From a virus (taxonomy: Duplodnaviria; Heunggongvirae; Uroviricota; Caudoviricetes), in IMG/VR virus record IMGVR_UViG_2563366976_000012, positions 1-20,586 of that record: DNA of 20,586 nt; one strand, written 5' to 3'. This document shows positions 2,828 to 3,933 of the stretch, piece by piece. Position numbers and translations under genes: made by a program. The notes below the pieces were generated by a model. It was not told where the DNA came from. It searched no databases and was given only the letters and a program-made list of their open reading frames with translations. Positions within the stretch are counted from its first letter, which is position 1; each line of letters begins with the position of its first letter.

Positions 2828-2853
2828 AATAAAAAGCCTTCAGGACTGAAGGC
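2828..2853 (-). terminator. Rho-independent terminator after the 65-aa gene
   Basis: Minus sense GCCTTCAG-tc-CTGAAGGC hairpin followed by TTTTTATTT; overlaps the stop codon of the 2840..3037 ORF. Confidence 0.6.
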
Positions 2854-3037
2854 GTCTGTAACAACCGCACTGATAGTCTGCCAGACCCGCCATAACAAGC
2901 TGGGTCAGTATTAACTGGCAGCGTTCGCGTGAAAGGTAAGTATTCTGCGCAATCTCCCCGACTGTCGCCGGTTCGGTAACGCTTAATTCATCAAACACAA
3001 CTCTGGCGGTTTCTGTCATATCCTGCTGTTTCAGCAT
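2840..3037 (-). CDS. Small (65 aa) putative winged-helix DNA-binding protein, function unknown
   Basis: ORF MLKQQDMTETARVVFDELSVTEPATVGEIAQNTYLSRERCQLILTQLVMAGLADY...; helix-turn-helix-like pattern; bracketed by its own terminator; AAGGG about 10 nt upstream of the ATG. Confidence 0.5.
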   Translation of the reverse strand: MLKQQDMTETARVVFDELSVTEPATVGEIAQNTYLSRERCQLILTQLVMAGLADYQCGCYRRLQS

Positions 3038-3160
3038 GTCTTTTTACCCTTTCCGGTTAACGTGACATACCAATAACTCTTGTCTAAAAAGCCAGCAAGA
3101 TAAAAAGCCAGTATTCACGACCACCAGCGTGTTTACTGTACTGCACCAAGTTTACAGGTA

Positions 3161-3186
3161 CAAAAAACCCGCTCAGTGGCGGGTTT
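3161..3186 (-). terminator. Rho-independent terminator after the unknown 205-aa gene
   Basis: ACCCGC-CACTGA-GCGGGT hairpin followed in minus sense by UUUUUUG. Confidence 0.6.
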
Positions 3187-3315
3187 AAGTTGTGTGGCGA
3201 AGTAACCACTCTTAACACACTAATAGCATTTTTGTTATAACACAAGTAGCTCATTCAGTATTTTTAGAATCTTGACTTTCTTAAGCACGGCGAACTCTGA
3301 ATACCAAACATAAAA

Positions 3316-3933
3316 TCAATTATCTTCCAGGCCGGATGCTATCAACGAAAGCCTCTCAAAAAACGCTGTAGCAGCCTTGTCCAAAGTTGAATAAGTACTG
3401 TATTCTCCGTGTTCGGGACCAACCACTACCCATGGTCGTCTTTTTGGGATTCGGGACTTCTCAGAAATCACTGTTCCAGATATACCAATATCAATTGTTA
3501 CACCTGTTATTATTTTCTCTTCATCTCTTTCCCTGAACTCAATTGCCATAAATGCCGTTTTTTTTCGTTTCCCGTTTTTAAAAAAATCAAATAAAGCAAA
3601 GCGATGCTCATTAAAATCAACACCCCATCGTCCTTCAGGATAAAGGGCATGAAAGTTGTCATTTACGCTCTGCATCGTCTCATAAGCTTTAACTTCTAAA
3701 TCTCCATAGTGCATAGATACCGCGCAGGAGTCACTGGGTAACTGTATTTTCCCAAGATTGAAAACCTTTACTGCTCCAGAACTATGGCATCTTGCCCGCA
3801 ATTTATCCCCATTTATACTAATCGGAGAAATATTCCTTAATGTTCCGGGCTGGCTCCCTCCTAAGTAAACGACTGTTAAAGATTGCTTATTTTCAATTGC
3901 ATCAACTAATACATGCTCTACATTTTTATCCAT
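3316..3933 (-). CDS. Hypothetical protein (205 aa), AT-rich moron cargo; no confident family assignment
   Basis: Start chosen at MDKNVEHV because GGAGG sits 5 nt upstream (the track ORF begins 9 codons earlier). Markedly AT-rich versus flanks. Own terminator downstream. N-terminal segment VVYLGGSQPGTLRNISPISINGDKLRARCHSSGAVKVFNLGKI has a weak WYL-like beta-barrel pattern (tentative). Confidence 0.6.
   Translation of the reverse strand: MDKNVEHVLVDAIENKQSLTVVYLGGSQPGTLRNISPISINGDKLRARCHSSGAVKVFNLGKIQLPSDSCAVSMHYGDLEVKAYETMQSVNDNFHALYPEGRWGVDFNEHRFALFDFFKNGKRKKTAFMAIEFRERDEEKIITGVTIDIGISGTVISEKSRIPKRRPWVVVGPEHGEYSTYSTLDKAATAFFERLSLIASGLEDN

Follow-up and report, generated by a model that had tools for sequence, protein, structure and literature searches.

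The window analysed here is the whole stretch of 20,586 nucleotides from a Caudoviricetes virus (IMG/VR record IMGVR_UViG_2563366976_000012). On its minus strand, a Q antiterminator gene is followed by a gene for a 205-aa protein, a homologue of the late promoter pR' with its leader, and a gene for a 65-aa protein (Table 1). An earlier note, made from the letters alone, had described the last two genes as self-contained AT-rich units, each with its own terminator. Both ORFs and both hairpins were found where that note had placed them, and both ORFs are real genes, with dN/dS ratios of 0.21 (205-aa gene, compared with the allele of 78% identity) and about 0.15-0.18 (65-aa gene). The AT-rich character was confirmed for the 205-aa gene (GC 0.396, GC3 0.32) and for the Q-proximal spacer (0.25), the window as a whole being at 0.48 and the DUF968 gene at 0.56, but not for the 65-aa gene, whose GC content of 0.505 lies above the window mean.

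Table 1. Features of the Q to 65-aa gene region (positions in the window; all features lie on the minus strand).
Feature	Position	Strand	Remarks
Q antiterminator gene	4009-4380	-	Q21/933W family, PF06530 (Pfam E = 7e-36)
RNA hairpin in the 75-nt Q-to-WYL spacer	3935-3971	-	Base-pairs with GGAGG (3944-3939), the ribosome-binding site of the 205-aa gene
205-aa gene, HTH-less WYL-domain protein	3316-3933	-	WYL domain, residues 1-68 (3730-3933); disordered linker, 69-81; conserved C-terminal domain, 82-205 (3319-3690)
pR' homologue	3217-3245	-	-35 TTGTGT (3245-3240), 17-nt spacer, -10 TAGTGT (3222-3217)
Initial transcribed region GTTAAGAGTGGTTACTTCGCCACACAACTT	3187-3216	-	Conserved; equivalent of the 933W 'qut' segment
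First hairpin and U run of the pR' leader	3161-3186	-	+25 to +50; called the terminator of the 205-aa gene in the earlier note
Invariant leader segment with two CTGGCTTTTT elements	3085-3128	-	Between the first hairpin and the 65-aa gene
65-aa winged-helix-like protein gene	2840-3037	-	First gene behind pR'; phrog_331; 'TrmB family' in RefSeq; orf47 of SfV; L23 of phiP27
Hairpin and U run	2836-2853	-	Overlaps the 65-aa gene's stop codon; +358 to +375 relative to the inferred pR' start

The window Q shares 56% identity with the Q of 933W. It carries a nonsense codon (W11stop, at base 4348), which is the sole difference from all 52 genomes with this allele. Q is intact in the nearest genome as well as in the others with this allele, and W11stop knocks out the window copy. 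As side observations, the terminase gene is frameshifted in the S88 copy of the prophage, and the LexA-type repressor of the E. coli prophage itself is encoded far off, at 12152-12778.

By comparing the region downstream of the 205-aa gene with phages that have a related Q, we found that 3245-3157 is homologous to the annotated pR', qut and first hairpin of 933W, with 81% identity over 62 nt between 3217-3157 and that stretch of 933W. Transcription would start near 3210, judging from where the annotated 933W pR' lies and from its sequence homology to the window. Five phages with this Q family have the same promoter layout in an alignment read by eye and, among the aligned phages, the initial transcribed region is kept only in those with this Q family, while the phages with a 250-aa Q (SfV and the Stx2k phage) diverge upstream of the first hairpin. 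Also, a Q match upstream of the leader motif was found in 97 viral contigs, and in all 97 that Q belongs to this family and lies on the same strand. The window therefore contains the cognate promoter and leader for its Q family, then an intrinsic terminator, that is, the arrangement of a Q-dependent late cassette.

The first hairpin (AAACCCGC-CACTGA-GCGGGTTT and a U run, 3186-3162) folds with -20.1 kcal/mol in its 58-nt context (z = -3.55). It is present in 933W and SfV, neither of which has the 205-aa gene, and the homologous site in SfV is annotated as a terminator directly after the SfV Q. Judged by this comparison, the hairpin is part of the conserved late-promoter leader and not the terminator of the 205-aa gene, which places the gene between Q and pR'. 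The opposite layout, in which pR' would directly follow Q and the WYL gene would sit inside a constitutive leader, was rejected because the 933W homology puts pR' downstream of the gene. Further along the leader, the segment with the CTGGCTTTTT elements is near-invariant in all seven aligned phages; one copy scored as terminator-like, with a weak fold (z = -1.5). A hairpin (GCCTTCA-GTCC-TGAAGGC plus TTTTTATTTG, 2853-2836) is indeed present at the stop codon of the 65-aa gene. This hairpin holds the position of the tR' of Sakai Sp5, mapped by Term-seq at +258 as the second terminator (PMC7547250), an analogy of position only given that the stems are not homologous. Since the mapped tR' in Sp5 is the second terminator, the first hairpin may leak. 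Terminator-like sites are enriched between 1900 and 4500 (9 against 2.0 +/- 1.5 in shuffles), and an Rfam scan inside 2700-4100 returned nothing significant (STnc130 reached 28 bits for a gathering score of 55).

Together, the cassette resembles that of 933W and Sakai Sp5 (Q, pR', qut, tR', StxS RNA) by its Q family, its homologous -10, initial transcribed region and first hairpin, and a second terminator a few hundred nt downstream, as for StxS. It differs in two respects. First, pR' overlaps the end of Q in 933W, whereas 763 nt of cargo separate Q from pR' in the window. Second, there is no homology past the first hairpin, and a 65-aa protein is encoded between the two hairpins in place of the StxS stretch.

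The 205-aa gene is thus inserted between the stop codon of a Q21/933W-family Q and that Q's own pR'. In the 97 viral contigs, the gap from Q to the leader motif was shorter than 60 nt in 25 and of 60-2,600 nt in 72, so that the slot is empty in about a quarter of the relatives and filled in about three quarters. The Q-to-pR' interval is a swap-slot in which 933W-like phages have nothing and most others carry diverse cargo, grouped into 42 clusters from 69 loci and including an ompC-like porin, a 148-aa ORF and L22 of phiP27. This cargo lies mostly on the strand opposite Q; the WYL gene, unlike the other eleven commonest cargo families, is on the Q strand. Q is directly upstream of the WYL gene at 56 of the 58 loci with scorable Q adjacency, and the 78% allele is also found directly behind Q, including in one Stx2a prophage. 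The nmpC/ompC-type porin and morons found after a quuD-type Q (DLP12-like) occupy the same slot before the leader and 65-aa module, and share with the WYL gene a presence/absence polymorphism and a low GC content, but they are autonomous units on the opposite strand while the WYL gene runs in the direction of Q and lacks a detectable promoter of its own. Among the ten commonest cargo families, four match PADLOC models of defence candidates (PDC-S20, PDC-M53A/B and PDC-S42), in line with the earlier proposal that the Q-proximal slot is a site for defence genes. Being rich in such candidates, the slot lends itself to mining for new systems.

The 205-aa form is the one annotated in RefSeq; its ATG at 3933 is preceded by GGAGG 6 nt upstream, and the mechanical ORF reaches 3960. 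Among 5,426 E. coli genomes, 74 have the gene, 72 of these in intact form, and both domains evolve under purifying selection (omega 0.13 and 0.21). It is a genuine, selected and exchangeable cargo gene of atypical composition beside Q. It has the moron-like composition and the presence/absence among related phages, and the earlier view of a cargo gene with a WYL sensor fold and an undescribed function is borne out. Neither outcome that the note had named as refuting was seen: the ORF is undisrupted in almost every relative, and no homologue of a housekeeping or structural kind turned up.

To what extent the gene is an independent transcription unit is another matter. A consensus promoter scan, which weak promoters can escape, found no site of at least 9/12 upstream of the start, and the single scored promoter-like site (3960-3932) overlaps the start codon. 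With no convincing promoter for the 205-aa gene, and with a hairpin shared with phages that lack it, the description of two self-contained moron units is not supported. Given that the gene is on the Q strand, 75 nt behind Q and without an evident promoter, it most likely closes the delayed-early operon and shares a transcript with Q. It is also possible that a weak promoter in the 25%-GC spacer allows expression in lysogens. The spacer hairpin has a folding energy of -23.3 kcal/mol in its 94-nt context (z = -3.5), and its outer stem, including the pairing with the Shine-Dalgarno sequence, is kept in the 78% allele, where a C-to-T change gives a G-U pair. By burying the ribosome-binding site, this hairpin probably throttles translation of the 205-aa protein.

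Although the earlier note could not place the 205-aa protein in any family, it matches phrog_8498 with E = 3e-126. Homologues were gathered by exhaustive profile search (a word-index search gave only 9 matches), and the family comprises at least 954 clusters at 50% identity. The WYL-like N-terminus had been called weak, and it turned out to be real and stronger than that. The protein itself matches Pfam WYL (PF13280) with 16.5 bits (E = 0.0085), under the gathering cut-off of 21.8, but 36 of 98 family members match the same model at E <= 0.01 (best 4.8e-8) and the family profile matches DriD with E = 9e-5 on YxGGSxPGxxRxIxP. The features of the WYL fold are there, namely an Sm-like barrel made of an N-terminal helix then four to five bent antiparallel strands. 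Y23, S27 and R33 pair directly in the alignment with Y168, S172 and R178 of DriD, which contact ssDNA phosphates; within the family, Y23 and R33 never vary and the conservation of S27 is 91%. K56 and F58 correspond to DriD R204 and W206 by strand position only. DriD R176 (T31 here) and the Tyr192 of the WYL motif (R46/A47) are not kept. No part of the family is better conserved than the ligand-contact residues. As several of the residues that contact phosphates and bases in DriD are kept in the WYL domain, the most likely ligand of the 205-aa protein is short ssDNA or a related oligonucleotide.

The rest of the protein offered fewer clues. Its charge is near neutral, its chain begins 2 residues before the WYL helix, and no HTH match was found in Pfam, NCBIfam or PADLOC. 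The predicted order of the C-terminal domain is helix, three strands, loop, two strands, helix, with no conserved acidic or histidine residues and no effector domain. Searching PDB sequences with a profile of this domain gave chance-level matches only (Csx28, 1ylx and a chemoreceptor; E = 0.13-0.43), and BFVD gave nothing significant. No internal duplication was found (hhalign probability of 0.3% between the N- and C-terminal domains), and the domains fused to longer family members were uninformative, save for zinc ribbons in one protein. In PADLOC-DB 2.0 there is no model for the protein, the only matches being Cas-associated WYL models (E = 0.0014 and 0.0066). NCBIfam holds nothing for either the 205-aa or the 65-aa protein. 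Literature searches on the protein accessions and on stand-alone or phage WYL proteins found nothing relevant; a paper on the prophage sRNA svsR was set aside as it concerns the cI gene and not the Q-WYL region.

The closest known systems are the ssDNA-sensing wHTH-WYL-WCX proteins DriD, CapW and BrxR, with which the 205-aa protein shares the WYL fold and its helix-plus-four-strand order, the DriD contacts Y168, S172 and R178 carried in the YxGGSxPGxxR loop, a second domain after a short linker and a long helix at the end. In contrast to them, it starts at the WYL helix without any winged HTH, and its gene is not beside an operon to regulate. The DriD WCX (strand-helix-strand-strand-helix-strand-helix) also differs from the C-terminal order predicted here, with no sequence or fold match found. 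WYL1, the Cas13d accessory protein, and PafBC are more remote, as they have RHH or HTH domains in larger architectures, and there is no CRISPR or proteasome context at the 205-aa gene.

The 65-aa protein matches phrog_331, whose function is not described (E = 6e-37). Its match to TrmB (E = 0.003) reaches 17.8 bits, below the cut-off of 25.6, seven other wHTH families match weakly, and PDB sequences gave no match. Since it lies behind pR', its gene would belong to a late or pR'-proximal transcript. We considered whether the two genes form a pair, and rejected this. Parts of the region are found in about 3,000 of the 5,426 E. coli genomes, the part shared in phage records being the leader and the 65-aa gene, a prevalence far from that of the 205-aa gene, and the 65-aa gene is never beside distant 205-aa homologues. 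The 65-aa gene is a separate, far commoner member of the conserved pR'-proximal module.

The distant homologues of the 205-aa gene are found in several contexts. In three phage lineages they come immediately after a CI- or LexA-type repressor, and in a fourth they adjoin one. Neighbouring regulators include short CI or HTH_3 repressors without a peptidase domain (six loci), an S24 repressor and a LexA-type repressor (one locus each) and Rha (four loci). Further homologues lie among GmrSD, HEPN and NERD genes. Several have ordinary chromosomal neighbours (PAP2, glycosyltransferase, ABC transporter and PAPS reductase genes), which means that the family is not strictly a conflict gene, and most of the 42 loci examined have no recurrent neighbour. 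The position behind CI-type repressors recalls the exclusion genes rexAB of lambda, co-transcribed with cI, but there is no sequence or fold relation and the E. coli copy is outside the immunity region.

Taking these observations together, our best guess is that the 205-aa protein is a sensor of an ssDNA-type ligand acting in phage conflict. With no DNA-binding or catalytic domain, its output would be either ligand sequestration or a ligand-dependent protein contact via the conserved C-terminal domain, and, by the location of the gene and of its homologues, a role in phage-phage or phage-host conflict is likely. We give about even credence to the full reading, in which a WYL cargo gene between Q and pR' is co-transcribed with Q and encodes an oligonucleotide sensor used in phage conflict, the 65-aa gene being separate.

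Other explanations were weighed against this one. The lysogen could express the gene from a weak promoter of its own for prophage defence or exclusion, the WYL domain sensing ssDNA or another product of an incoming phage and the C-terminal domain oligomerising or binding a target so that infection aborts. The PADLOC candidates held by the slot in related phages, the atypical GC content, the homologues in the cI-operon position of rexAB in several phages and those adjoining NERD, GmrSD and HEPN genes all agree with this. However, the C-terminal domain has no effector domain or conserved acidic or histidine residues, the orientation with Q departs from that of the other common cargo families, no promoter was scored and no PADLOC family was matched, which makes it a possible but rather unlikely explanation.

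Alternatively, an HTH-less WYL protein made with Q at induction could serve as a counter-defence decoy, soaking up the short ssDNA that host CapW and BrxR read to switch on CBASS or BREX. There is a precedent for the signal, as CapW senses ssDNA and derepresses CBASS upon lambda prophage induction, lowering virion yield about 100-fold (PMC11662680). The position of the gene suits co-expression with Q, the ligand contacts are what the family conserves best, and a sponge would need no output domain. On the other hand, the ribosome-binding site is sequestered and nothing points to high expression, many homologues are chromosomal or in lysogeny operons, which fits poorly, and a plain sponge would not need a conserved C-terminal domain; we thus consider the decoy improbable. 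A detached sensor subunit, equivalent to a split wHTH-WYL-WCX and reporting DNA damage (ssDNA) to a neighbouring short CI-type repressor, Rha or Q, would explain why homologues adjoin CI/HTH_3, S24 and LexA-type regulators and Rha, and why Q is the neighbour here. It is slightly more improbable still, with no recurrent neighbour at most of the 42 loci and the prophage's own LexA-type repressor so far off. Finally, a hitch-hiking gene that now plays no part in this prophage would fit its rarity, the knocked-out window Q and the frameshifted S88 terminase gene, but is very improbable for a gene under purifying selection on both domains, intact in nearly every genome that has it and belonging to a large, conserved family.

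The results bear on the annotation and the biology of these phages. First, the hairpins beside the 205-aa and 65-aa genes belong to the late-gene switch and not to the genes. Second, to our knowledge, every characterised WYL domain is a sensor module fused to a DNA-binding or enzymatic output, whereas the present family keeps the ligand pocket without a recognisable output and recurs beside phage master regulators. Because the C-terminal domain matched nothing, no known mechanism of output applies. A broader idea, which we regard as doubtful, is that members of the HTH-less family are free-standing ssDNA sensors or sponges that temperate phages carry to manipulate the DNA-damage signal, either made with Q at induction and blunting the derepression of host defences by CapW or BrxR or, behind a peptidase-less CI, acting as the damage sensor that triggers induction. 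If true, either version would add a new functional class to the WYL proteins, along with a cargo hot-spot, not described before, in which Q is parted from its promoter. The ligand and the partner of the WYL protein would reveal how phages read or distort the ssDNA alarm used by bacterial defences.

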